Assembly: GCA_049997855.1 (NCBI GenBank)
Contig: JBEKSG010000005.1
Span: 1,111 to 65,110 of the forward strand
From: Minisyncoccia bacterium
Lineage (GTDB): Bacteria; Patescibacteriota; Minisyncoccia; Phycocordibacterales; SBAW01
Length of the DNA stretch: 64,000 nt
Direction of reading: 5' to 3'
In this document: in pieces, positions 43,959 to 64,000 of the stretch
How positions within the stretch are numbered: position 1 is the stretch's first letter
Layout: the number at the start of each line of letters is the position of its first letter
Notes under the pieces: model-generated
Databases searched by the model: none
Told to the model about the DNA's origin: nothing
What the model saw: only the letters and a program-made list of their open reading frames with translations
Translations under genes and position numbers: made by a program

Positions 43959-44246
43959 TTAGCAGTAGCCCTCTTCACGAAGAATTTCCATCTTACGTTC
44001 TGTGCCACCACGGTTGTAGTTGCCTATTTTGCCGTCGCTCCTTACCGCGCGATGACATGGGATTTTAGGATTGTAATTTTTAGACATCAAGGTGCCAACC
44101 GCGCGCGCTGCATTAGGATTGCCTGCTTTAGTAGCAACCTGTTTATAAGTCATTACCTTTCCTTTGGGGATTTTTGCCACAATGGCATAAACTTTTTTAG
44201 AAAAGAGATTTTGTCGTCGGCTTTTCATACTTTTTTGTAACTTCAC
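43959..44246 (-). CDS. ogt: Methylated-DNA--protein-cysteine methyltransferase, DNA-binding/active-site domain only (95 aa).
   Basis: IPCHRAV active-site motif and HTH (VMTYKQVATKAGNPNAARAVG). There is no N-terminal domain. The 5' end overlaps the stop of the next gene. Confidence 0.8.
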   Translation of the reverse strand: MKLQKSMKSRRQNLFSKKVYAIVAKIPKGKVMTYKQVATKAGNPNAARAVGTLMSKNYNPKIPCHRAVRSDGKIGNYNRGGTERKMEILREEGYC

Positions 44247-44982
44247 TCACCGCCTCGCGATAGGTACAGTAATCGCACTCTGCCCCGGCTTGCGGCAGTG
44301 CATCGCCATCCAAACATTTTTTTAACTCGACAAGCGCGCTGTCTATCCAGTCGGTCGAGCCTTTGTACGGTACGAGCGTGAGTTCAAAATCGAGCCGGCC
44401 GTCAAACGACTCTCGGTCTTTGCTTGCATTGGCATAAAACCAATAGCCCGTGTCGGACACGGTAAATCCGTTTTGGCGCAACAACCATTGATATATTTCG
44501 ATTTGGCGTTTGTAGCCGCGATGCCATTCTTCGTCGAGACTCTCGATACGGCCGTCTTTGCTGGTGGCTTTGTAATCGATAACGATGAGTTCGCCAGCTT
44601 TATTGACCCAAATATCATCAACACCACCGCGCACGGTAAGTCCGGTTTCTTTGTGCACGCACTTGATGCCCTGATTGAGCGCATTGCGCCACTCGTCCAT
44701 TTGTGCGTGATTTAGCGGCACTGCGTCTAGACCGTAGGCTTTAGCAAGCGGATGCGGCGTACCAAGCGCGCGATGAGTGTCGAGCTCCTTTTTAAGCAGC
44801 GCGTCGACGGCACTGTTGAGACTAAACGGGAATCCGGGCGGCCGCGCGACGCCGAGCTTGTTGTCGATGTAAAAACAGCGCGGACACTCCAAAAAAAGAT
44901 CTATTTTGGAGCGAGAAAGGGTCCATTTTGCTCCGCCGTAGCTGTAATCGGAGTTACGATTGGGTTTGTAGTACTGACTCAT
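44197..44982 (-). CDS. Cas4/RecB-like PD-(D/E)XK nuclease with four-Cys Fe-S cluster (DUF83-like), standalone.
   Basis: N-terminal CPRC, nuclease motifs GVDDIW / VIDYK / QIEIYQ, C-terminal CDYC. No cas genes or CRISPR array in the window. Confidence 0.75.
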   Translation of the reverse strand: MSQYYKPNRNSDYSYGGAKWTLSRSKIDLFLECPRCFYIDNKLGVARPPGFPFSLNSAVDALLKKELDTHRALGTPHPLAKAYGLDAVPLNHAQMDEWRNALNQGIKCVHKETGLTVRGGVDDIWVNKAGELIVIDYKATSKDGRIESLDEEWHRGYKRQIEIYQWLLRQNGFTVSDTGYWFYANASKDRESFDGRLDFELTLVPYKGSTDWIDSALVELKKCLDGDALPQAGAECDYCTYREAVSEVTKKYEKPTTKSLF

Positions 44983-45009
44983 AGGACACGTGCGTCCCAT
45001 TGTACCTCG

Positions 45010-45489
45010 CTAGTGCTCTCCTGTCCCGTATTTAGTGCGCACAATATTTTCAAGTGGAAGAAGCAGAGTTAATATCAATAGCGCAAACACCGCGGCGCCG
45101 AGCGCCAACAGCTCAAAGCCGAAACCGGTGGCCATGCCAATACCAGCCGCGACCCATAAGCCTGCGGCGGTGGTAAGCTCCACCGGATGCTCGCCGTGGA
45201 ACATCGCGAGGCCGGTACCAAGAAACCCGACGCCGAGCACCACGTTGGCTGCCACTTGGAGCGGATTGACTCCGGTAAAACCGGAAAGTTGGTAGCTTGC
45301 CAACACGCCCGCTATGACAAACAGCGCCGAGCCCATGGAGACCAGCGCATAGGTGCGCATGCCCGCGTGTTTGCCGGCAAGCGAGCGCTCAAGCCCCAAC
45401 AGCGCTCCGAGTACTGCCGCCACCAAAAGCCGCCACGCTAAAGCGAGTTGCATTACCGTTGAAATATCTATGCCAGGCCAAAGATACAT
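45010..45489 (-). CDS. mgtC: MgtC/SapB-family membrane protein.
   Basis: LAWRLLVAAVLGALLGLERSLAGKHAGMRTYALVSMGSALF is the MgtC N-domain. Confidence 0.8.
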   Translation of the reverse strand: MYLWPGIDISTVMQLALAWRLLVAAVLGALLGLERSLAGKHAGMRTYALVSMGSALFVIAGVLASYQLSGFTGVNPLQVAANVVLGVGFLGTGLAMFHGEHPVELTTAAGLWVAAGIGMATGFGFELLALGAAVFALLILTLLLPLENIVRTKYGTGEH

Positions 45490-45524: not shown

Positions 45525-46220
45525 TTAGTTGGTCGTAAACTCCACCAACACGGGGTTGCCTTGTGCGTCGCGGACGGGTTTGTCGCTTTCAAGCGAAAAT
45601 ACTTTGTCGCCGTCATCAAGCGCCTCGCCTGCAAGGTACGTAAGCCCTGGCAAAGTACCGCGCAAAAGCTCAACGGTACCGCTTTGCGCGGCGTTTCCGG
45701 ATTGCGGCAAAAACAGCTCCGCACCGAGTGCGTTGCCGGGGACGCCTGCGTGGTCTTCATACACCACTACCCAGGTGGGTTGAGACACGACTACCCGCGA
45801 TACCGCTACGTCAAACCCTGCCGTTTGCGGAGAGGATATGACAAAATCACCCGAAGTGCTGGTAATGTTTAATACCGGCGCGGTGCTGTGTTGCCCTTGA
45901 GAGGAGGTAGAAGTTGCTGCCGTTTCGGTAGAAGTTGCGGTGAGCGCTGTTAATCCGCCATGATGCGAACCGGCAATGCCCCAACCGACAAGCGCTCCGA
46001 TAATAACTCCCGCTATAAATATACTCACATAGGTGCCTGTGTAAGATTTTGTCTGCATCGCAGTTTGCGTGGTACTGCGAGGCATAGAAGTCACCGGCGA
46101 CGTACTAGACGTCGCGCTTGCGGGAACGATAGGCTGAGACCATGAGAGCGACGACTTTTGACCCTGCGCTTGTTGACCTCCTTGATTATTGTCCTGACTA
46201 TGCCCGGTGTTTGCTTGCAT
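45525..46220 (-). CDS. Hypothetical membrane-anchored protein with low-complexity Gln/Ser/Thr-rich N-region and one TM helix.
   Basis: ORF track. TM YVSIFIAGVIIGALVGWGIA. No motif recognised. Confidence 0.5.
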   Translation of the reverse strand: MQANTGHSQDNNQGGQQAQGQKSSLSWSQPIVPASATSSTSPVTSMPRSTTQTAMQTKSYTGTYVSIFIAGVIIGALVGWGIAGSHHGGLTALTATSTETAATSTSSQGQHSTAPVLNITSTSGDFVISSPQTAGFDVAVSRVVVSQPTWVVVYEDHAGVPGNALGAELFLPQSGNAAQSGTVELLRGTLPGLTYLAGEALDDGDKVFSLESDKPVRDAQGNPVLVEFTTN

Positions 46221-46269: not shown

Positions 46270-47094
46270 TCATATATCCCCTACTGGAGAGCACAATGCC
46301 TTTATTTCTTGGAACACGGTTTCGGCTTTAGTGCCAGTAACCCCTATCCTTTCAAGAGCGTCGCGATGGCTTCTTAATGTATTGCAAAGCACTATTTTTT
46401 CGCTGAGTAGAGCCGTTTTTTCGCGCTTCGAAAGCGTGGTCAAAGCAGTAATCGGATACAGGCCGGCGCGATCTATCCGCTCGTGGAGCGTGGCGCCTTG
46501 TGGATAATCCCAACCGAGAAGACCGAGGAGCCGGCACTCGGCATAGCGCTTGGCTGTGTCGGTAAACTTGGTATTGGTGGCCACCAAACTTTTGGCATCA
46601 GGGTGCCCGGCCGCGATAATGTCCTCGATGCGCGCCTGTACATACAACACCACTTTAAGGTCGGCTTTAAAAGCGGGGCTGTTGTGAAATTTCGCTTCAA
46701 CATAGAACGTATCGCCGCCTTTGGTTGCGACAACATCCACTTCGTGCTCGACGCAATGGCCTTTGATGATTTGATCGACGGATGCATGGTATCCTTCGGC
46801 GCGATATATCTCCGCGACAAACGCCTCAAACGGAAAACCGGAAGGTCCAAAGTCGAGCATTGCGTGTTTGAGGCTGTAGCGCGCCGCTGGACCGTGCTTT
46901 TCGAAGCTTAAGTGCGCAAAAGCACGCGAATATATCTCGCTCGTGGTTATGGCTGGCCGCAACTCTTTTTCAATTTCGCGGCAGATGCGCTCTGCGGTAG
47001 CCTCATCGGCACCCGATCTACGGAGCGAGCGCATTAATTTTTCTGCTTCAAAAGGCTCGGCAGTGCCGTCCGATTTTGTAATGAGCACCGACAT
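46270..47094 (-). CDS. ATP-cone domain fused to Mrr-type (PD-(D/E)XK) restriction-endonuclease catalytic domain.
   Basis: N-terminus MSVLITKSDGTAEPFEAEKLMRSLRRSGADEATAERICREIEKEL (ATP-cone, as in NrdR / RNR allosteric domains). C-terminus FEAFVAEIYRAEGYHASV...HEVDVVATKGGDTFYVEAKFH (Mrr_cat D...ExK). Start at the internal ATG 47094; the upstream ORF-track extension overlaps the preceding gene. Confidence 0.65.
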   Translation of the reverse strand: MSVLITKSDGTAEPFEAEKLMRSLRRSGADEATAERICREIEKELRPAITTSEIYSRAFAHLSFEKHGPAARYSLKHAMLDFGPSGFPFEAFVAEIYRAEGYHASVDQIIKGHCVEHEVDVVATKGGDTFYVEAKFHNSPAFKADLKVVLYVQARIEDIIAAGHPDAKSLVATNTKFTDTAKRYAECRLLGLLGWDYPQGATLHERIDRAGLYPITALTTLSKREKTALLSEKIVLCNTLRSHRDALERIGVTGTKAETVFQEIKALCSPVGDI

Positions 47095-47102
47095 GTGGGT
47101 TA

Positions 47103-47576
47103 TTATGCGTGTATGGATTTTATCGTAGTAGGTATGATGATTCCGTTTATCGTAAGACCGTCCAACATCGCTTTTGTTCCAGACGCTACTAATACGGAAA
47201 CGGAGAAAGGCTCGTTCGTGCCACCTTCGGAGGCTTGTGCACAGGCAACGGACGGTTTTACGAGCGTAAGAAGGATGGTAACGTGCGAGGGATTTTGTCC
47301 GTTTACAGAAATTCCCTCGCCAAGTTCCTCGCACGAAGAATCAAGCGGCATCGAACCGCTGTAGGTATACGTGTTGTTTGCAAAAGCTACTTGCACTTCA
47401 ACAGGCTTCAATGTCCCTTGAGGAACATACTGCACGCTCGGTGCATCGGCTGTAGGTTGCTGATTGGATACGCCCGTACTGTTTTGTGTAAACACAGCAA
47501 TCCCCCACCAAAATGCAAATATGCACACGAAAAGCAACACCAGCGACCATGTGCTCGAGTGAGCGCGATTTTGCAT
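47103..47576 (-). CDS. Hypothetical protein with N-terminal TM anchor and small extracytoplasmic domain.
   Basis: Internal Met of ORF 47103..47738 (the upstream portion overlaps mnmA). WSLVLLFVCIFAFWWGIAVF TM helix. Confidence 0.45.
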   Translation of the reverse strand: MQNRAHSSTWSLVLLFVCIFAFWWGIAVFTQNSTGVSNQQPTADAPSVQYVPQGTLKPVEVQVAFANNTYTYSGSMPLDSSCEELGEGISVNGQNPSHVTILLTLVKPSVACAQASEGGTNEPFSVSVLVASGTKAMLDGLTINGIIIPTTIKSIHA

Positions 47577-47628
47577 ATGCGCTAAGTATAGCCTTCTCAC
47601 GTGCAGAGGAACACAAGTTATCAACACA

Positions 47629-49755: not shown

Positions 49756-51096
49756 TTATATCGGTAAGTTTGCCGGAGCCTCGGCACGGCGGCTCGGCAT
49801 GCGCTGCAAGGTTGGCGTATGCGCCACCTTGCCCGGGAAGTGCCACAACGAAGCGAGCTCCTCGGTGTTAAGCGCAATGTGGAAGTCTTTGTTGGGCGGA
49901 TAAAAATATTGCCGCGTCACGTAGCCCCGATACAATTTTGCTTTAAGCAATCGCCTGCGGATACCCATAAAATCATGCCATTTGACGTTAAAGGGGCCGA
50001 TATAAAAAATCGGTTTAAGACCGTTAAGACCAATGCCTTTTGAACCGTGCTCAAACGAGCGAAACATAGTAGGAATAGCGTTATTGCGGATGCCGCCCTT
50101 CCACACGTCTTTGCGCGCGATATAGATAGTGCGGATACCGACGTCAAAAATGGGTTTATTGAGTTTTTGCCCGATAGCTTTAATGGCTTCTTTATCATTA
50201 TCCGGCAAACGCGAAAAGTTTGGAATTGATTTGCCTTCGGCAGTTTTATCGACATATTTTTTGCCAAGCTTGTCGACTACCACCTCCGCCCACTTATTGA
50301 GCGGCAACGCACGATAATGAGCATCCTCATCGTCTTCCGACCAATAACATTTGGTGTGTCCGCGCAGGATTATCTGCGACCATACATGCTCGCCCGGGCC
50401 TATCGAGCCCATAAACTCAATGACCGAGTTAAGCGGATCACTTTTAAACTCTTCTTCAGTGTCTGCCTTGTCGAGCCCCCATGCCACGTAGGTCATGATA
50501 GGATACGGATCGGGCTTTTGGAGGCATTGTTCAACGCCCCACAAATCATAGTCGCCGGAGTTCCATGGGACTGCGAGCGTGTAATCGGACACTTCCGCCA
50601 CCTGCACCGTTGGATAATGCGCATAAAGTTGCGATTTAATCCTTTCCTTAAATTTGACGCGGGTCCATATATAAAAACGCACCGCGCCTTCGGTTGAGGC
50701 TATCTCAAGCGAAAACCACGGGCTGGTATTGCCAAACCATAAATGCGCCGGCGTATCCACTTCGCCGGTGTCGTATAGTGTTCGTATCAACAGCTCGGCT
50801 GCATAGGGGCTCTGGGTAATTTCCTCCGGAAGCTTGATTTCAAGCAATACATGCTCAGTACTCCAATATTTTTGTTGTTGTTTGTACTCAAGCCATCCAT
50901 AGGCCGCCAATATGCAAAACAGCACCGGTAATACGAACGGTGAAGACGCCAAAAGAAATCCCCATATGATCATCCATTCACCGAAGTGGAAAGGTATCCA
51001 CACAACAATAAAATACACCAACACGAGCGTGACGTATGGGACGTCCAACGCGTATTGCATGAGATTTTTTCGAAAACTCTTATAGAACTTTCCCAT
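49756..51096 (-). CDS. Hypothetical membrane protein: N-terminal TM hairpin + about 370-aa cytoplasmic domain.
   Basis: ORF track; hydrophobic N-terminus (VTLVLVYFIVVWIPF...IIWGFLLASSPFVLPVLFCILAAYGW). No recognised catalytic motif. Confidence 0.55.
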   Translation of the reverse strand: MGKFYKSFRKNLMQYALDVPYVTLVLVYFIVVWIPFHFGEWMIIWGFLLASSPFVLPVLFCILAAYGWLEYKQQQKYWSTEHVLLEIKLPEEITQSPYAAELLIRTLYDTGEVDTPAHLWFGNTSPWFSLEIASTEGAVRFYIWTRVKFKERIKSQLYAHYPTVQVAEVSDYTLAVPWNSGDYDLWGVEQCLQKPDPYPIMTYVAWGLDKADTEEEFKSDPLNSVIEFMGSIGPGEHVWSQIILRGHTKCYWSEDDEDAHYRALPLNKWAEVVVDKLGKKYVDKTAEGKSIPNFSRLPDNDKEAIKAIGQKLNKPIFDVGIRTIYIARKDVWKGGIRNNAIPTMFRSFEHGSKGIGLNGLKPIFYIGPFNVKWHDFMGIRRRLLKAKLYRGYVTRQYFYPPNKDFHIALNTEELASLWHFPGKVAHTPTLQRMPSRRAEAPANLPI

Positions 51097-51230: not shown

Positions 51231-52274
51231 TTACTTTAACAAAGTAAACTTGCCGTCTTTGTCGCGCTTAAAGTATTTTTGATTTTGGAGGTTGACTACC
51301 ACGGTGCCCGGCTTTACATGGCGTTCTTTAAGCACCTTCTCGACAATCTGCTCGCGAGTCATGGGGCCCCCTTCGCGTAAAATATTGCGGATAACGTCGC
51401 GCACGACGCCTTCGGTATATCCCCACTCTTTGAGCGCATACATGCCGCGGCCTACCAGCACAAAACGGCTGTCTTTGATGAGTTCGTTGTGCGTGGTGGC
51501 TACATGCGCCGCGCGGTTAAACATCTTTTCGATGAGTGCGGCCACCTCTTTAAAGTGAAGCGGACTGCCGTGCTTTTTAACCGCCAAGTAGGCATAATCG
51601 CGGATGCCTTTGGTCCTGACATTGCTCGAGTTCGCCTGACCCCACTCGCCGAGCGGATTTTTCCCGACTTTTTTAGAAATCTTAAGCCAGCGTTTGATAA
51701 TCTCATCATTGCGATGCTTGTCGTTGATGTTCTGGAGCTCTTTGAGGAAGCGGTCTATCATCTCACCCTCCGGTATCAAGTCTTCATCGGAAAGGCCTTC
51801 GTACAGGTTTTTGAGCGCCGTTTCTACCTGAGTTGCAAGCTCCGCATCGACATACCAGCAACGATTGATCTCGTCGTCCTCTTTTTTGTATTTGAAGGAA
51901 TCGCCGAGCACCAGAAGGAAGTAGATGTGGTTTTGCATCGACTTGTCTTTGGTGATGAAGTTGAGCAGGTCGTCCTCGCACACGATGCCGCCAAGACTGT
52001 CGACAATGCGCTCGAGCTCTTGAAAAGCCGCTTCGGCTTCGCCAAACGCCGGCGATTTTTTGAGGCTGGCAAGCGCGTGATTTTCGATCTGGCGCACGCG
52101 CTCGCGCGTGATGCCGTATTTTTTGCCTATAGACTCAAGCGTGACGCGCTCGGGGAGCGTACCCAAACCAAAGCGCGCTTCAAGCACCATGCGCGAGCGT
52201 TCGGGAAGGCTCTGCAGCAACTTGCGCACTATCGCTTTTGGTTTAAAACCGGTTTTGTCGCCTGTAGGTGCCAT
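51231..52274 (-). CDS. Sigma-70 region-4 (HTH) domain protein with long uncharacterised C-terminal extension.
   Basis: LPERSRMVLEARFGLGTLPERVTLESIGKKYGITRERVRQIENHALASLKK is a textbook sigma-70 region 4.2, but it sits at the N-terminus. No regions 2 or 3 recognised. Confidence 0.6.
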   Translation of the reverse strand: MAPTGDKTGFKPKAIVRKLLQSLPERSRMVLEARFGLGTLPERVTLESIGKKYGITRERVRQIENHALASLKKSPAFGEAEAAFQELERIVDSLGGIVCEDDLLNFITKDKSMQNHIYFLLVLGDSFKYKKEDDEINRCWYVDAELATQVETALKNLYEGLSDEDLIPEGEMIDRFLKELQNINDKHRNDEIIKRWLKISKKVGKNPLGEWGQANSSNVRTKGIRDYAYLAVKKHGSPLHFKEVAALIEKMFNRAAHVATTHNELIKDSRFVLVGRGMYALKEWGYTEGVVRDVIRNILREGGPMTREQIVEKVLKERHVKPGTVVVNLQNQKYFKRDKDGKFTLLK

Positions 52275-57631: not shown

Positions 57632-57735
57632 ACAAAAATTGTATCACGGGTTTTTTCTGTGGCGTCGAGTACACTCTCGACATCCGACGTACCGTCGGGT
57701 ACACAAAATTACAGTCGCTTTGCTCCTTAATTTTG

Positions 57736-57806
57736 TGGACCTACGGGGAGTCGGACCCCGACCTCGTCCATGCCATGGACGCGTTCTACCGCTGAACTAT
57801 AGGCCC
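57736..57806 (-). tRNA. tRNA-Ala (anticodon GGC), CCA not encoded; T-loop TCCGACT (C55).
   Basis: Hand fold of the reverse complement: GGGCCTA/TAGGTCC acceptor (one G-U), D-arm GTTC/AGCGGTA/GAAC, anticodon arm CGTCC-ATGGCAT-GGACG, T-arm CGGGG-TCCGACT-CCCCG, discriminator A. Confidence 0.6.
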
Positions 57807-57815
57807 TCGAACACA

Positions 57816-58232
57816 TCATACATTACCGGGCATCCGCTTATCGCGCATGCTGCGTCTTTTTTCCCGCCCGCGTATCTGGCGCTCGTCGTAACCGAAGTGA
57901 TGCGCGACTTCATGCCAGACGGTGTCGCGGATAACTTGCCGCACGTCTTTGCCCTCTGCCAGTGCGTTTTCCTCAATCGGTTTTTGAAACAGTGTAATGG
58001 TGTCGGGCAACGTCCCTCCAACGCCGTAGTAGTCACCGCGTGCAGTTGCAGGGACGCCGTGATACAAACCGAGCAGTGTCTCGTTCCGGCCTAAGCCTTC
58101 TTGTTTCCGCAATGCCTGCGACGGCTCATCTTCAATCAAGAACGCAACATTGTGTATCATGGTGCGGAACTTCTCCGGTATAGCCTTGGGGAATTCCTCC
58201 CCGACTAATTGTTCAAATGCATCTCTGGTCAT
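57816..58232 (-). CDS. Minimal zincin-like metallopeptidase (HExxH; DUF1025/Zincin_1-like).
   Basis: TVWHEVAHHFGYDE motif. Start at the internal Met MTRDAFEQL. Confidence 0.55.
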   Translation of the reverse strand: MTRDAFEQLVGEEFPKAIPEKFRTMIHNVAFLIEDEPSQALRKQEGLGRNETLLGLYHGVPATARGDYYGVGGTLPDTITLFQKPIEENALAEGKDVRQVIRDTVWHEVAHHFGYDERQIRGREKRRSMRDKRMPGNV

Positions 58233-58561
58233 TGGACTAACTGTAACAGAAAACACACAAACCAACCTGATTGTGTCACATGCCGGGCGGAAAATGGAAA
58301 AAGAAAAATAACCCGACCGAAGCCGGGCCATTAATATCGGCCTTCCAACTGATCTTGCTCTTCGTGGTCGCGCGCGATTTGCGCATTCCCGTTTGGGTGT
58401 TGTCTGTGCCAGCGAACATCGCCGTCGACAAGTTCAAGCACCAAAGCAATCACTAGCGCGACTGCAGTTGCCCATAACGGTATGTGTATGATAAACATGC
58501 TGAACTCCCCCAAACAACATTGAGAACGAATCTGCAAGATATTATACCACTAATATGAAAA

Positions 58562-58584
58562 TAAAAAAGCCTGCTTGTGCAGGC
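58562..58584 (-). terminator. Rho-independent terminator after the tRNA pair (GCCTGC-acaa-GCAGGC + TTTTTTAT on the minus strand).
   Basis: Read directly on the plus strand as AAAAAAGCCTGCTTGTGCAGGC. Confidence 0.5.
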
Positions 58585-58616
58585 AGACGTCATGAGTAGT
58601 GAATGTCATAACGATG

Positions 58617-58687
58617 TGGACCCGGCGAGAATCGGACTCGCGCCTCTGCAATGCGAATGCAGCGTTTTACCACTTAACTACGGGCCC
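58617..58687 (-). tRNA. tRNA-Ala (anticodon CGC), CCA not encoded; T-loop TCCGATT (C55); 3-bp D-stem.
   Basis: Hand fold: acceptor GGGCCCG/CGGGTCC (one G-U), anticodon arm CTGCA-TTCGCAT-TGCAG, T-arm GCGAG-TCCGATT-CTCGC, discriminator A. Confidence 0.5.
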
Positions 58688-58720
58688 TAATATAAAAATT
58701 ATATTAGTCAAAATCTAAGT

Positions 58721-58789
58721 CGGGGTGCCGAGAATCGGACTCGAGTTTCACGCACCCGAAGCGTGTATAATACCACTATAAGACACCCC
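58721..58789 (-). tRNA. tRNA-Pro (anticodon CGG), short (69 nt), CCA not encoded; T-loop TCCGATT (C55). The acceptor helix extends into 10-11 bp of complementary flanks.
   Basis: Hand fold: acceptor GGGGTGT/GCACCCC, D-arm TATA/GTGGTAT/TATA, anticodon arm CACGC-TTCGGGT-GCGTG (G37). Flanks AAATCTAAGTC / GACTTAGATTT are complementary. Confidence 0.45.
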
Positions 58790-58821
58790 GACTTAGATTT
58801 CGACTTTTAAAATATACCAAT

Positions 58822-58859
58822 AAAAAGAAAAAGGGTCGAGTCGCTACGCGACTCGACCC
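58822..58859 (-). terminator. Strong rho-independent terminator (GGGTCGAGTCG-ctacg-CGACTCGACCC + TTTTTCTTTTTAT on the minus strand) after CDS 58868..59251.
   Basis: 11-bp perfect stem read directly. Coordinates may be off by 1. Confidence 0.65.
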
Positions 58860-58867
58860 GAGAAGCA

Positions 58868-59251
58868 TTACGTCCGTTTCGAATGCGGAGTTAACGGGAT
58901 CATGATGCCTTTGATCATATGGGCAAGACAAGTCGCCGCAATTCCTAAACTCTTGGCGAAAGGTAAAAACTCTTTGATTCGCCGCAACTTTTCTGCCTCC
59001 ATTGAAGGGTTGCCATTGATTATAGTGGCGACCTTCCAATCGTGTTCCTTGCACGCACCATTGGCGGTGCAAATGGTTACCCTTACGTAAAGACGACTGT
59101 TGGGCCTGTGATAAAAATCGAAATCGGCATAATCGACATCGACATCTTCCGAAAAGCCTCCAGAAACTCTGGCCGATCTGATAATTTTGAAGTTGTTTTT
59201 TCCTACTGAAATAACAACGCCAACTTTCTTATCTTGAAGCCGGAAGTCCAT
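58868..59251 (-). CDS. Hypothetical protein (127 aa), lower GC than surroundings.
   Basis: ORF track; no motif recognised. Flanked by a strong terminator and by tRNA genes. Confidence 0.4.
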   Translation of the reverse strand: MDFRLQDKKVGVVISVGKNNFKIIRSARVSGGFSEDVDVDYADFDFYHRPNSRLYVRVTICTANGACKEHDWKVATIINGNPSMEAEKLRRIKEFLPFAKSLGIAATCLAHMIKGIMIPLTPHSKRT

Positions 59252-59352
59252 CTTTCGTCCCCAATTGTTTATCTTCCGTCGGCTTGATTGCCGATGGCAC
59301 GGCTAACACTGTACTACTAAGTACAGTTTTGTCCAGTCTACTTGTGTATAAG

Positions 59353-59426
59353 TGCACCCTTCAGGATTCGAACCTGAGACCTCACCCGTGTGAAGGGTGC
59401 GCTCTAACCAGCTGAGCTAAGGGTGC
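59353..59426 (-). tRNA. tRNA-Val (anticodon CAC), canonical T-loop TTCGAAT; CCA not encoded.
   Basis: Hand fold: acceptor GCACCCT/AGGGTGC, D-arm GCTC/AGCTGGTTA/GAGC, anticodon arm CACCC-TTCACAC-GGGTG, T-arm TCAGG-TTCGAAT-CCTGA. Confidence 0.8.
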
Positions 59427-59478
59427 AAACACTATACAGATTGCAATATATGGACAATTTAGTAAAGTAATTGAGCAA

Positions 59479-59554
59479 GGGCCCTTAGCTCAACTGGTAG
59501 AGCGCCTCATTTGCAATGAGGAGGTAACCGGTTCAACCCCGGTAGGGTCCACCA
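59479..59554 (+). tRNA. tRNA-Ala (anticodon TGC) with encoded CCA. Its last 6 nt (CCACCA) are the outer end of IR-L.
   Basis: Hand fold: GGGCCCT/AGGGTCC acceptor, D-arm GCTC/AACTGGTA/GAGC, anticodon arm CCTCA-TTTGCAA-TGAGG, T-arm ACCGG-TTCAACC-CCGGT, ACCA end. Confidence 0.85.
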
Positions 59555-61836: not shown

Positions 61837-62427
61837 ATGGAAACGAAAAAATTTGAAGATTTGAATAAGGGAGATCAAATTAAAGCGGATTTGTATTCGA
61901 GACCGAATGCTATGAATGGGAAATACAGAGTCGGTCAACTTGGATTGGATGATTTGGTAAAAATTAAAAGTAGCGATACTTTCTTTTTGGAAACATTGAA
62001 AATGAAAGCTGATTTGGCTGACAAAATGATTGCGGAAGCTGAATCACAGGGCAAAAATACATCAGACCAGAAAGTGATGAAAGAGTTGGGCGAAGAAATA
62101 AATGCCGTAGGCACTCCGCTTCACAGAAGCGAATCTGTAATGACTGCAATTTTTGCTTCCTTGCATTTAATCGTGTATTACGGAATTGCGATTGGTATTT
62201 GGGGGCTAGTTTTCAAAAAAAGTTTTCTGATGTTTGGTTTTTACGGCGTTATCGTGGGACTTTTAATTAGCTTACTATCTGTCGCTCCTGTAATCGCTTT
62301 TCAGAGAACAAAAGAAAAAGTTAGAGATATGTCGTTTGGTGCCGGTGCAACATGGGGGAATTTAGGAATTATCATTGGCGTTGTCGGCCTAATAGCTTTG
62401 GTAATAAGATTAGTATTTTTTAAATAA
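61837..62427 (+). CDS. Hypothetical protein with C-terminal TM helices, AT-rich.
   Basis: ORF track; 5-nt spacer after the XRE gene. Confidence 0.5.
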   Translation: METKKFEDLNKGDQIKADLYSRPNAMNGKYRVGQLGLDDLVKIKSSDTFFLETLKMKADLADKMIAEAESQGKNTSDQKVMKELGEEINAVGTPLHRSESVMTAIFASLHLIVYYGIAIGIWGLVFKKSFLMFGFYGVIVGLLISLLSVAPVIAFQRTKEKVRDMSFGAGATWGNLGIIIGVVGLIALVIRLVFFK

Positions 62428-62432
62428 ACTAT

Positions 62433-63362
62433 ATGGAATACAAAAAATTAGAGGAAAAAATCGACAACGATCTTAAATGGAAAACTATTGAGGATATTCC
62501 TAATTTTCCAGTCTCTAACTTTAATGAAATAAAAAAGAAGATAGACTCGAAAGAGTTTTCCTTAAGTCTTAATCCTATAACTACTCTTGAATTTTCCTCT
62601 AATTTTTCTAGCGGATTTTCCAGTTTATTTTTTTCGCTTTTTCTTCATACCACATGGATTGTGACTATTGCTTCAATTATCTTAGCTTTTGTCCTTGGGA
62701 ATTACTGGCTGTTTCTAGGAATAATTGTTTGTTATGTCGCGCATTTTACTTCTCTCCCGTATGTTCAATTTAAAAAATTATGTTATCTCGTCGCTGCACT
62801 ACTTTTTCTTGTTTTCTTCTATGGCATCATGCAACATAAAGAACTAGCTACATATCTCTCGTTGTTTTTTATTCTTCCAGTTCTAGCTAATATTTTCCTA
62901 TACGATATGAGTTATAGAAAACTTCGTGATGTATCAATAAATTCAGAGAAAATTTTTATTTATCTATTTCAAACAGGCAAATTAATGTTGGAAGATAATA
63001 AAAACAAGTTTCTTTTTAGTGTACATAGTGCTAGAAATGTCAGCGTTGATCCTGATTTTATTTCAAAGGTAATTCAAGAAGCGTCGGAAACGATGAAAAA
63101 AACCAACTGCAACACTTTAGCAATGGAAAACATAAATGATATAGGTCGGTACGTTCCTTTTACTTATGTTTATCAAAAAACTTGGATTGATGCCGCTAAT
63201 TTTACTGCCAGTGATATGGCTAGAGACGAAGGCTTAACTGGTCAAGAACTAAAAGATAGAGCGACGGAAATATTTAGAGATGCAGTGAGAGTTGAGCCGA
63301 ATACAAAAGAAGGTAAAAAGGTTCGTGGTTTAGCGCAAGTTACAGCGGCAATCTCAAAATAA
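62433..63362 (+). CDS. Hypothetical polytopic membrane protein, AT-rich.
   Basis: ORF track; several hydrophobic segments. Confidence 0.5.
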   Translation: MEYKKLEEKIDNDLKWKTIEDIPNFPVSNFNEIKKKIDSKEFSLSLNPITTLEFSSNFSSGFSSLFFSLFLHTTWIVTIASIILAFVLGNYWLFLGIIVCYVAHFTSLPYVQFKKLCYLVAALLFLVFFYGIMQHKELATYLSLFFILPVLANIFLYDMSYRKLRDVSINSEKIFIYLFQTGKLMLEDNKNKFLFSVHSARNVSVDPDFISKVIQEASETMKKTNCNTLAMENINDIGRYVPFTYVYQKTWIDAANFTASDMARDEGLTGQELKDRATEIFRDAVRVEPNTKEGKKVRGLAQVTAAISK

Positions 63363-63367
63363 TAAAA

Positions 63368-64000
63368 ATGGAAATTAGAGACTTCAATTCGCAAACGCAA
63401 GCTTTGATTGCTCTAGTGGACGAGATAACGAAAGGCTTACAGAAGATAAAAGAGTCGAACGATATAGACAAAAGGAAGAACGCCGAAAACGGGCGAATGG
63501 AATTTGCTTATGTTGAATACTACTTGGCAGAGGTTTCGTCCCTACTAAACCTTTCTGTTTATCTGGTGGAGCATACTGCGTTTAGGAAATATGCCTACTT
63601 CCCGGCGCGTTTGATAATGGAAATCGTATTGCAGTTGGAACATGTTTACTCGGTAAAGAAGAAAAAAGGATTAAATGGAGTCCGTCGCTTATTTTTCAAA
63701 GACATTGCAATTAGTGCAAAATCATCTCTTGCTCTGCCCGGCGAAGGGGGCAAGGAAAAGCTAGGTGGTCATTTAATCTTTCTGAATATTGCCAGCAAAA
63801 TTCTAAAATTAGACTTCAGTACAGATGATGTTTCTGCGAAGTCAAACAGGGACATAAAATCGTTGTGCAATAAAAGTCATATTGTTGTTAAAAATCTTAC
63901 AGGAAGTGAACTATACAGCTTTTACGAAATGCTTAGCGAAGCTTCTCACGCCAACGTTGTAAACGTGGGAGCAAGCGATTATGTAAACGACGGGGAAGGA
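63368..64000 (+). CDS. Hypothetical protein, partial (runs off the window end), AT-rich.
   Basis: ATG at 63368 with open frame to 64000 (hand translation MEIRDFNSQTQALIALVDEITKG...). Confidence 0.4.
   Translation, partial: MEIRDFNSQTQALIALVDEITKGLQKIKESNDIDKRKNAENGRMEFAYVEYYLAEVSSLLNLSVYLVEHTAFRKYAYFPARLIMEIVLQLEHVYSVKKKKGLNGVRRLFFKDIAISAKSSLALPGEGGKEKLGGHLIFLNIASKILKLDFSTDDVSAKSNRDIKSLCNKSHIVVKNLTGSELYSFYEMLSEASHANVVNVGASDYVNDGEG

Follow-up and report, generated by a model that had tools for sequence, protein, structure and literature searches.

A widespread fusion of an ATP-cone to an Mrr-type nuclease in a Minisyncoccia genome, and a possible role in nucleotide-gated nucleic-acid turnover

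We analysed a stretch of 64,000 nucleotides (nt) from the genome of a Minisyncoccia bacterium (GenBank assembly GCA_049997855.1, contig JBEKSG010000005.1; hereafter the window) and focus here on one of its genes, which encodes a protein with an N-terminal ATP-cone, a PD-(D/E)XK nuclease domain and a C-terminal helical domain (Table 1). An earlier note on this DNA had proposed that an ATP-cone is fused to an Mrr-type nuclease, and the fusion is confirmed: the open reading frame (ORF) is unbroken, the protein begins MSVLITKSDG, and both Pfam domains score above their gathering thresholds (GA), ATP-cone (PF03477) at residues 5–56 (31.3 bits, GA 25.8, E = 3e-7) and Mrr_cat (PF04471) at residues 86–186 (34.3 bits, GA 21, E = 2.8e-8). 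That note overlooked the third domain, AF1548-like_C (PF22357, residues 213–267), which falls below its GA of 23.9 in the full-length scan (21.1 bits) and just above it (24.0 bits) when the C-terminal domain of the window protein is scanned in isolation. The databases hold an identical protein (P0001), titled ‘MAG: restriction endonuclease [Minisyncoccia bacterium]’.

A longer ORF from a GTG start at 47334 was discarded, as the extension is not conserved. We take the ATG at 47094 as the true start because the homologues are 260–290 amino acids long and begin at the same motif, MxxxIxKxDG. The possibility that two genes had been joined by a frameshift or artificially was also set aside, given the unbroken ORF, the identical recorded protein and thousands of homologues with the same length and the same fused domains. 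Scans for promoters and terminators around the gene returned nothing informative, and tRNAs were the only matches to Rfam. An AlphaFold model built from an alignment of 48 homologues has a predicted local confidence (pLDDT) of 83 and a predicted template-modelling (pTM) score of 0.70. Its N terminus fits the ATP-cones of NrdR, and the remainder fits Protein Data Bank (PDB) entry 1Y88, on which the model superposes with a template-modelling (TM) score of 0.80, normalised to the target (Foldseek).

Table 1 Coordinates of the nuclease gene, its domains and one neighbouring gene in the window
Feature	Position	Strand	Details and evidence
Whole gene	46270..47094	(-)	274 amino acids; ATG start, TGA stop (46270-46272); ORF and translation, Pfam, 1Y88
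ATP-cone domain	46849..47094	(-)	Residues 1-82; Pfam PF03477, model, Foldseek, NrdR alignment
PD-(D/E)XK nuclease domain (Mrr_cat / AF1548-type)	46504..46848	(-)	Residues 83-197; Pfam PF04471, 1Y88
Catalytic signature	46690..46737	(-)	D120 46735-46737; E133 46696-46698; K135 46690-46692; read from sequence
AF1548-like C-terminal helical domain	46285..46503	(-)	Residues 198-270; five helices; PF22357, domain model
mgtC (context only)	45010..45489	(-)	Two genes downstream of the nuclease gene; Pfam MgtC, E 8.7e-30

In the model, the N-terminal domain adopts the cone fold, with a β-hairpin lid (residues 3–14; strands 4–6 and 12–14) followed by helices 17–26, 31–43, 51–65 and 70–86. Foldseek aligns the first ~73 residues of the model with the cones of NrdR (1.7–2.3 Å over 72–73 residues, probability 1.00). 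Conservation was read from an alignment of 48 Patescibacteria sequences (A1), a cross-phylum alignment (A2) and archaeal sequences. K7, G10 and K19 are invariant across phyla, including the archaeal sequences; R26 is invariant in A2 and variable in A1 and in archaea. Archaeal members retain the canonical motif V-R-K-R-D-G, and PF03477 is precomputed on nearly all homologues. A profile–sequence comparison (hhalign) places K7, S8, E13, P14, F15, K19, L20 and R26 opposite K53, S54, E59, P60, F61, K65, L66 and R72 of Escherichia coli NrdR, a register over NrdR residues 50–73 (24 columns, probability 21%) that is supportive, not decisive. The NrdR equivalents of these residues cover the adenine, read its N6, contact the phosphates or line the outer site, and the inner site of NrdR takes ADP and AMP too (bioRxiv 10.1101/2025.03.28.645925). 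The alignment supports the view that the cone of the window protein keeps these adenine-nucleotide contacts and would bind a nucleotide. The fourth cone helix (70–86) continues unbroken in the model into the first segment of the nuclease domain, which carries the core residue E90; this continuity would provide a plausible route for allosteric coupling.

That segment reads GPSGFPFE, and the pattern GPxGxxFE, with G83, P84, G86, F89 and E90 as its invariant positions, occurs in all lineages sampled. The D...E-A-K motif read in the earlier note corresponds to D120 and E133-A134-K135, and D120, E133 and K135 align with D38, E51 and K53, the predicted triad of the archaeal protein AF1548 (PMC1821046). 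None of E90, D120, E133 and K135 varies, whether in A1, in A2 or in archaea; the PD-(D/E)XK active site is intact, and its conservation favours catalysis, so that the protein is predicted to be a competent endonuclease. Three further elements, H117-E118, H137 and T-N-T (173–175), are invariant in both bacterial alignments and variable in archaea. Fold matches of the nuclease core include 1Y88, MspJI, NucS/EndoMS and Can2 (Foldseek).

The invariance of the catalytic residues also speaks against the idea that the protein is a non-catalytic regulator of the NrdR kind, in which the cone controls DNA binding by a degenerate nuclease fold and a helix-hairpin-helix (HhH)-like domain. The cone does resemble that of NrdR most closely, as judged from Foldseek, hhalign and a weak match to the NCBIfam model of NrdR (TIGR00244; 19.9 bits against a cut-off of 124.65, in the cone part only); a tblastn search found no NrdR homologue in the window, and the gene is sometimes the first in an operon of nucleotide-metabolism genes. 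However, the protein has no Zn-ribbon, and nrd genes are absent from the recurrent neighbours at about 170 loci, which leaves a regulator as the least probable of the readings considered here.

PF22357 was found in all 21 family members scanned. Modelled alone, the C-terminal domain reaches a pLDDT of 85.8 and superposes on 1Y88 with a root-mean-square deviation of 1.6 Å (Foldseek), and 1Y88 is the sole match of the domain profile to the PDB. Its weak fold neighbours are BAF, the RNA polymerase α-CTD, the N-terminal domain of RAD51/RadA and SAM-like domains (E = 0.5–1, TM 0.5–0.65), and a single family member has a weak match to HHH_5 (E = 0.09). These likenesses are no more than suggestive of a (HhH)2-like domain that may bind nucleic-acid backbones. 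Four cysteines on separate structural elements, C114, C187, C237 and C268 (nt about 46291–46755), are invariant or nearly so in bacterial members. We considered a universal four-cysteine metal site and dropped it: C114 and C187 are retained in archaea as well, but archaeal sequences, AF1548 among them, lack one or both of the other two, with C268 missing throughout and C237 in some lineages.

The family is large. The window protein retrieved at least 2,761 database proteins, the best 120 of which all have the same architecture at 58–100% identity, and a Chlamydiota orthologue as query retrieved at least 6,551 further proteins with the fused architecture. A HMMER search over 1.84 billion cluster representatives (50% identity) returned 1,155 clusters, including 423 at E ≤ 1e-30 that are nearly all full length (270–290 amino acids). 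The count of species genomes with a member is at least 585, and that of metagenome loci at least 595. Their hosts include Patescibacteria (Adler-, Kaiser-, Wolfe-, Nomura- and Ryanbacteria), Bacteroidota (Cyclobacterium, Pontibacter, Kaistella, Fluviicola, Chryseobacterium, Chitinophaga, Psychroserpens and Saprospiraceae), the chlamydia Criblamydia and archaea (Archaeoglobus, Geoglobus, Ferroglobus, Aenigmarchaeota, Nanoarchaeota, Korarchaeota, Bathyarchaeia and Altiarchaeales), and almost all archaeal relatives are three-domain proteins of 260–290 amino acids. On this evidence, the three-domain fusion is the ancestral state of an ancient family that occurs in both bacteria and archaea. In the metagenome-assembled genome Sediminibacterium sp. 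C8_maxbin.045, the gene occurs twice, on two contigs (L065 and L079), each time after the same genes for RND efflux and a P-type ATPase; the second copy may stem from a real duplication or from redundancy of assembly or strains.

Existing labels for the proteins are ‘ATP cone domain-containing protein’, ‘restriction endonuclease’ and ‘restriction endonuclease/ATP cone domain-containing protein/AF1548-like protein’, and a scan of the window protein against NCBIfam matched no family-specific model. The earlier note knew of no functional work on the fusion, and our literature search likewise found no paper on it or on an ‘ATP cone domain-containing protein’. The architecture is already catalogued in databases under these names; the family behind it, ancient and very large, is uncharacterised.

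Its sole structure is that of AF1548 of Archaeoglobus fulgidus (1Y88, a structural-genomics entry titled ‘protein of unknown function’), an orthologue-level relative that shares the nuclease core, the C-terminal helical domain and the D/E-x-K triad and matches residues 92–267 of the window protein (E = 8.7e-30, 34% identity; phmmer). For the archaeal search we used the sequence of AF1548 as it stands in the alignment to 1Y88. Its best match, P0391 (locus L170:6001–6798), is a natural protein of 265 amino acids that is 99% identical. Pfam recognises all three domains in it, and its first residues, MLRVRKRDGRLEEFSRAKI, are those of a canonical ATP-cone; the chain deposited as 1Y88 has 199 amino acids and is ~66 N-terminal residues short, which is most of the ATP-cone. 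Because of these lengths and the alignment to P0391, the 1Y88 chain most likely derives from a start codon called ~66 residues too far downstream. The only structure of the family thus apparently lacks its sensor domain through a short ORF call, and is therefore silent on gating. The ATP-cone of P0391 starts with the residues MLRVRKRDGRLEEF....

To place the gene in its genomic setting, we compared loci across lineages. At 55 Patescibacteria loci it lies in one conserved same-strand row. Upstream are leuS, a gene for a protein with sigma-70 region 4 and HARE-HTH domains (sigma-r4/HARE-HTH), a gene for a 446-amino-acid membrane protein, mltG, mnmA and, in some cases, a small membrane ORF; downstream are genes for a 231-amino-acid membrane protein, MgtC (present in 35 Patescibacteria loci), a Cas4-like nuclease, an Ogt-like protein, Ung or UDG-IV, and an M13 peptidase or AlaS. 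In the same loci, the nuclease diverges at about the rate of mnmA, mgtC, the M13 peptidase gene and alaS (median paired differences of about 0.1–1.4 identity points); the divergence of mltG and of the membrane proteins is faster. Thus, in Patescibacteria it behaves as a slowly evolving, non-mobile chromosomal gene of housekeeping type.

This row is the source of the main alternative to the reading developed below, in which the protein is a DNA-repair or replication nuclease tuned to the dNTP/ATP pool that acts alongside the Cas4-like nuclease, the alkyltransferase and the uracil-DNA glycosylase. The three genes lie 3–5 genes downstream on the same strand in at least 45 Patescibacteria loci; the nuclease core resembles the repair nucleases NucS/EndoMS, among others; the C-terminal domain is weakly similar to the DNA-backbone binders BAF, α-CTD and the RAD51 N-terminal domain; and ATP-cones are elsewhere tied to dNTP homeostasis, in ribonucleotide reductases (RNRs) and NrdR. 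However, the co-occurrence belongs to a single inherited synteny block and so is not independent evidence. The earlier note, which had raised a repair role, placed the gene next to ung and ogt; the actual distance is four to five genes, and two unrelated genes, those for the 231-amino-acid membrane protein and MgtC, separate it from the Cas4-like gene in the window. Repair genes are missing from the recurrent families at ~100 Bacteroidota and Chlamydiota loci and at 8 archaeal loci, and the fold matches to repair nucleases reflect generic PD-(D/E)XK likeness (E about 1e-3). With its repair neighbours confined to the Patescibacteria synteny, we consider such a role unlikely.

Outside Patescibacteria, the neighbours are different. 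We clustered the ORFs of 102 loci, annotated the neighbour families through cluster representatives and counted as informative the 77 loci with at least 1.6 kb of downstream sequence. A β-CASP gene occurs within three genes downstream in 42 of the 77, and immediately next in 28. The stop-to-start gaps between the two are mostly −41 to +17 nt, rising to about 250–350 nt where a conserved ORF of 84 amino acids intervenes. Outside Patescibacteria, the gene is thus often coupled in translation to the β-CASP gene, and also to genes of the AMP-phosphorylase pathway described below. The partner has a metallo-β-lactamase (MBL) fold with Beta-Casp and RMMBL domains, and its nearest solved homologue is the Thermus thermophilus ribonuclease TTHA0252 (E = 2.4e-70), followed by the type VII CRISPR RNA nuclease Cas14 and CPSF-type RNA endonucleases of archaea and eukaryotes. 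The 84-amino-acid ORF has no family match and is found in Flavobacteria-type loci (L084, L086–L091, L093, L095, L096 and L098; for example, L088:8874–9125).

On plasmids of Criblamydia sequanensis and Pontibacter actiniarum, the row consists of the ATP-cone protein, an MBL-fold hydrolase, a ‘thymidine phosphorylase family protein’ and a ribose-phosphate pyrophosphokinase. The phosphorylase, present at 14 loci, is of the archaeal type (PRK04350/TIGR02645) and is far closer to the AMP phosphorylase of Thermococcus kodakarensis (4GA5/4GA6; E = 3.5e-99) than to true thymidine phosphorylases (E about 1e-39). In 12 loci it is followed by a PRK07199-type synthetase of phosphoribosyl pyrophosphate (PRPP).

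These genes form part of larger islands, all on the same strand, with tandem genes for universal stress proteins (USPs) in up to seven copies. Other island genes encode Hsp20, a PAS histidine kinase and a receiver–cNMP–Crp regulator; phosphofructokinase (PFK), class I aldolase, a GAPDH-like protein and a 2-hydroxyacid dehydrogenase; and a Ca/Mg-type P-type ATPase, MgtC–DUF4010, an AAA_28 P-loop protein and cardiolipin synthase. P-type ATPases lie near the gene in Bacteroidota and Chlamydiota, and MgtC–DUF4010 occurs at 10 non-Patescibacteria loci (Bacteroidota, such as Psychroserpens); mgtC is the only neighbour type of the window that recurs outside Patescibacteria. The mycobacterial DosR regulon comprises USPs, HspX, PfkB, CtpF and phosphoribosyltransferases, and the island gene content recalls, by analogy, dormancy or hypoxia regulons of this kind.

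Nine loci (L119, L122, L128, L139, L151, L153, L156, L159 and L165) have four to seven tandem USP paralogues upstream of the nuclease/β-CASP pair, with the PAS histidine kinase and a receiver–cNMP-binding–Crp regulator before the array and Hsp20 and cardiolipin synthase after it. Such arrays look like an undescribed island of the dormancy or hypoxia type in Bacteroidota-like genomes, and our literature search found no paper on a Bacteroidota USP/β-CASP island. A second type of island has recurrent ORFs of unknown family, one of ~137 amino acids upstream (9–10 loci) and two of ~147 and 218 amino acids downstream.

In archaea, a Bathyarchaeon has a row of ribose-1,5-bisphosphate isomerase (TIGR00511; 419 bits, cut-off 314) and AMP phosphorylase (TIGR03327; 617 bits, cut-off 535), followed by the nuclease gene with an overlap of 11 nt. 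This operon is an independent link of the family to the catabolism of nucleoside monophosphates (NMPs). Elsewhere, the gene overlaps both CorA upstream and a gene for a DUF389 membrane protein downstream in Ferroglobus placidus, abuts an amino-acid-permease–USP fusion in Geoglobus and in another contig of the Archaeoglobus group, and overlaps an MscS channel gene in an Archaeoglobus fulgidus-like contig; DPANN-type contigs have DJ-1/PfpI, Glu_synthase-like and thioredoxin-reductase-like neighbours. The themes common to archaea and bacteria are NMP phosphorylase, USPs and transport of Mg2+ and other ions. Of these, the Mg2+ theme (MgtC, CorA and P-type ATPases) is the one that reaches the window, through mgtC. 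On one Archaeoglobus-group contig (L173:4163–5807), an MjaI-type restriction enzyme and an N6/N4 methyltransferase lie divergently beside the ATP-cone nuclease; the pair is a complete, self-sufficient restriction–modification system, and the arrangement was not seen at other loci.

The earlier note had called a nucleotide-sensing defence effector plausible. Such an anti-phage or restriction-type effector would be an Mrr-like nuclease set free when infection disturbs the ATP/dATP pools. The Mrr_cat domain is in keeping with this idea, as are the general design of a sensor joined to a PD-(D/E)XK nuclease, which is common in defence (Can2, Card1 and Cdn1 are among the fold matches), and the MjaI-type pair beside the gene in one archaeon. 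A scan against PADLOC-DB v2 found no family that covers the window protein, and the matches it returned (E = 4e-4 to 4e-3) are weak and confined to the Mrr-like nuclease sub-domains of ZorD, PDC-S02 and CARF_PDDEXK; a Bacteroidota orthologue gave similarly marginal sub-domain matches, and the window neighbours matched no system bar a standalone Cas4-like similarity. By tblastn, no relative was found in 50,697 phage genomes, and the two plasmids mentioned above are the only carriers among 72,556; none of 2.9 million IMG/VR contigs encodes a relative. Neither Mrr_N nor any other domain that reads modified DNA was found in the protein by Pfam and NCBIfam scans. The recurrent neighbours are metabolic and stress genes, with no defence gene and no cognate methyltransferase among them. 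Together with the stable synteny and the housekeeping-like divergence rate, these results led us to discard defence as the leading explanation, and we now regard it as very unlikely.

We propose instead that the protein is a nuclease gated by adenine nucleotides that serves nucleic-acid turnover and the salvage of nucleotides, in a housekeeping or stress role, and give this reading a probability of about 0.5. The ATP-cone would take an adenine nucleotide (ATP, dATP or possibly ADP or AMP), and binding would shift the oligomeric or conformational state, probably as in RNRs and NrdR. Because the last cone helix continues into the E90 segment, a bound nucleotide would be in a favourable position to turn nuclease activity on or off, by way of helix 4 and GPSGFPFE. 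A nuclease gated by ATP or dATP, as suggested in the earlier note, fits the conserved NrdR contacts, the invariant catalytic residues and the continuity of cone and core; the gating itself we infer. Our guess is that the ATP-replete state is off and that the depleted or the dATP- or AMP-bound state is on.

Once switched on, the nuclease would start a controlled breakdown of cellular or scavenged nucleic acid. The β-CASP exo/endoribonuclease may then trim the products to NMPs, which AMP (NMP) phosphorylase could pass, through ribose-1,5-bisphosphate or PRPP, into salvage and central metabolism. Such a pathway would work when energy charge, ATP or Mg2+ is short. Judging from the partner enzymes, RNA is somewhat favoured as the substrate, and DNA is also possible. 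Patescibacteria are generally held to depend on salvaged nucleotides, and in the small genome that contains the window the gene may be a conserved chromosomal part of nucleotide scavenging.

Several observations weigh against this proposal. The function is drawn entirely from gene neighbourhood, and for the window gene it is transferred from orthologues at 37–53% identity. A tblastn search found no homologue of β-CASP, AMP phosphorylase, PRPP synthetase or USPs in the window, and the β-CASP/AMP-phosphorylase linkage is absent from every Patescibacteria locus examined, where the recognisable neighbours are instead concerned with DNA repair (Cas4-like, ogt and ung) and tRNA modification (mnmA). 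About 45% of the informative loci outside Patescibacteria have no β-CASP neighbour, and the contexts of the 8 archaeal loci are heterogeneous (MscS, CorA, DJ-1/PfpI and others). DNA is the usual substrate of PD-(D/E)XK enzymes that have HhH-like domains, whereas the partners here are directed at RNA and NMPs. As to the sensor, the hhalign match to NrdR is short and of low probability, and the Pfam match spans just the first ~60 positions of the cone.

More tentatively, and with more doubt than the proposal itself, the family could supply the regulated first step, so far missing, of a conserved route that leads from nucleic acid through nucleotides to sugar phosphates, in which a sensor of energy charge, the ATP-cone, licenses an endonuclease. 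With a β-CASP RNase of the TTHA0252 type, it might convert ribosomal or other RNA, or scavenged nucleic acid, to NMPs that feed AMP phosphorylase and the pentose-bisphosphate or PRPP pathways in dormancy, hypoxia or limitation of Mg2+ or energy. In Patescibacteria and DPANN-type organisms, which rely on nucleotide salvage, it might be a core lifestyle gene.

In its presumed mode of action, the protein works like ATP-cone allosteric systems and like sensor-gated PD-(D/E)XK nucleases, and belongs to neither group. It has the cone fold of NrdR and an NrdR-like lid motif (V-x-K-S/A-x-G-x-x-E-P-F-x-x-x-K-L), and probably shares the logic of a nucleotide-dependent quaternary change. In contrast to the Zn-ribbon DNA binder of NrdR, its output is a nuclease with an HhH-like domain; the gate tyrosine of the NrdR outer site (Y131 in E. 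coli) has no confident counterpart in the alignment, and the association of NrdR with nrd genes is not seen. The activity sites of RNRs (NrdA, NrdD and NrdB of Leeuwenhoekiella) contain the same mobile module for ATP versus dATP, which there regulates a radical enzyme, whereas here it would regulate a phosphodiesterase outside any context of dNTP synthesis.

The closest parallels among sensor-gated nucleases are Can1/Can2, Card1, Cdn1 and Cap4, in which an N-terminal small-molecule sensor likewise precedes a PD-(D/E)XK effector whose core is a structural neighbour. Their CARF and SAVED sensors bind cyclic-oligonucleotide messengers, whereas the ATP-cone would bind a primary metabolite, and the family has no association with CRISPR or CBASS and no defence-island context. 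Card1 and Can2 cut both single-stranded DNA and single-stranded RNA; the PD-(D/E)XK fold can thus act on RNA. E. coli Mrr and other type IV restriction enzymes, on which the Pfam family Mrr_cat was founded, share the Mrr_cat domain, which is above threshold in the window protein too, but differ in Mrr_N, their winged-helix reader of modified DNA, and in their patchy, mobile distribution. The archaeal AMP-phosphorylase/pentose-bisphosphate pathway consists of AMP phosphorylase, ribose-1,5-bisphosphate isomerase and type III RuBisCO. The family is operon-linked to it in Bathyarchaeia, and is linked to AMP-phosphorylase-like enzymes and PRPP synthetase in Bacteroidota and Chlamydiota; a nuclease is not among the described components of the pathway, and the window has none of the pathway genes.

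ATP-cones are characterised as allosteric switches in RNRs and NrdR, and no functional study of them in any other protein is known to us. If the proposed gating is correct, ATP-cone allostery extends to nucleic-acid degradation, and this would be the first ATP-cone shown to control a nuclease. The family would then offer a possible answer to how cells time the breakdown of their own RNA or DNA as a supply of nucleotides, ribose and Mg2+, a matter that bears on the physiological source of NMPs for the AMP-phosphorylase pathway of archaea and of the candidate phyla radiation (Patescibacteria) as well as on the USP-rich dormancy islands. The label ‘restriction endonuclease’ invites a mistaken defence reading of the family; its gene contexts instead yield a testable hypothesis that ties nucleic-acid turnover and the AMP-phosphorylase pathway to energy and Mg2+ status.

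Several neighbours of the gene in the window merit a brief description. The sigma-r4/HARE-HTH protein (51231..52274 (-), 347 amino acids) combines an N-terminal sigma-70 region 4 with a HARE-HTH/RNA-polymerase-δ-like domain and no other gene in the neighbourhood is conserved as strongly (median identity 79% among Patescibacteria loci); specific family matches are confined to the region-4 part of RpoD and MzaA. The Cas4-like protein (44197..45000 (-)) is a standalone nuclease of the PDDEXK_1 family with cysteines near both ends; its matches to Cas4 models (E about 1e-9) fall short of the cut-off, and we saw no CRISPR genes in the vicinity. Its gene is overlapped by 50 nt by an ORF for 95 amino acids (43959..44246 (-)) that consists of just the C-terminal DNA-binding domain of MGMT, with a PCHR motif, and the two proteins are strongly conserved, with a median identity of 63–66% in Patescibacteria. 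By comparison, three flanking membrane or secreted proteins (49756..51096 (-), 446 amino acids; 45525..46220 (-), 231 amino acids; and 47103..47582 (-), ~150 amino acids) evolve much faster than the nuclease, at 34–37% median identity; they have no significant Pfam or NCBIfam family, and the 231-amino-acid protein has a weak match to DUF7282. Further along the window is a cluster of five tRNA genes (Ala-GGC, Ala-CGC, Pro-CGG, Val-CAC and Ala-TGC) at 57735..59554, and the G+C content falls to 0.36–0.43 in the last 4 kb (62001..64000 noted), against about 0.5 elsewhere.

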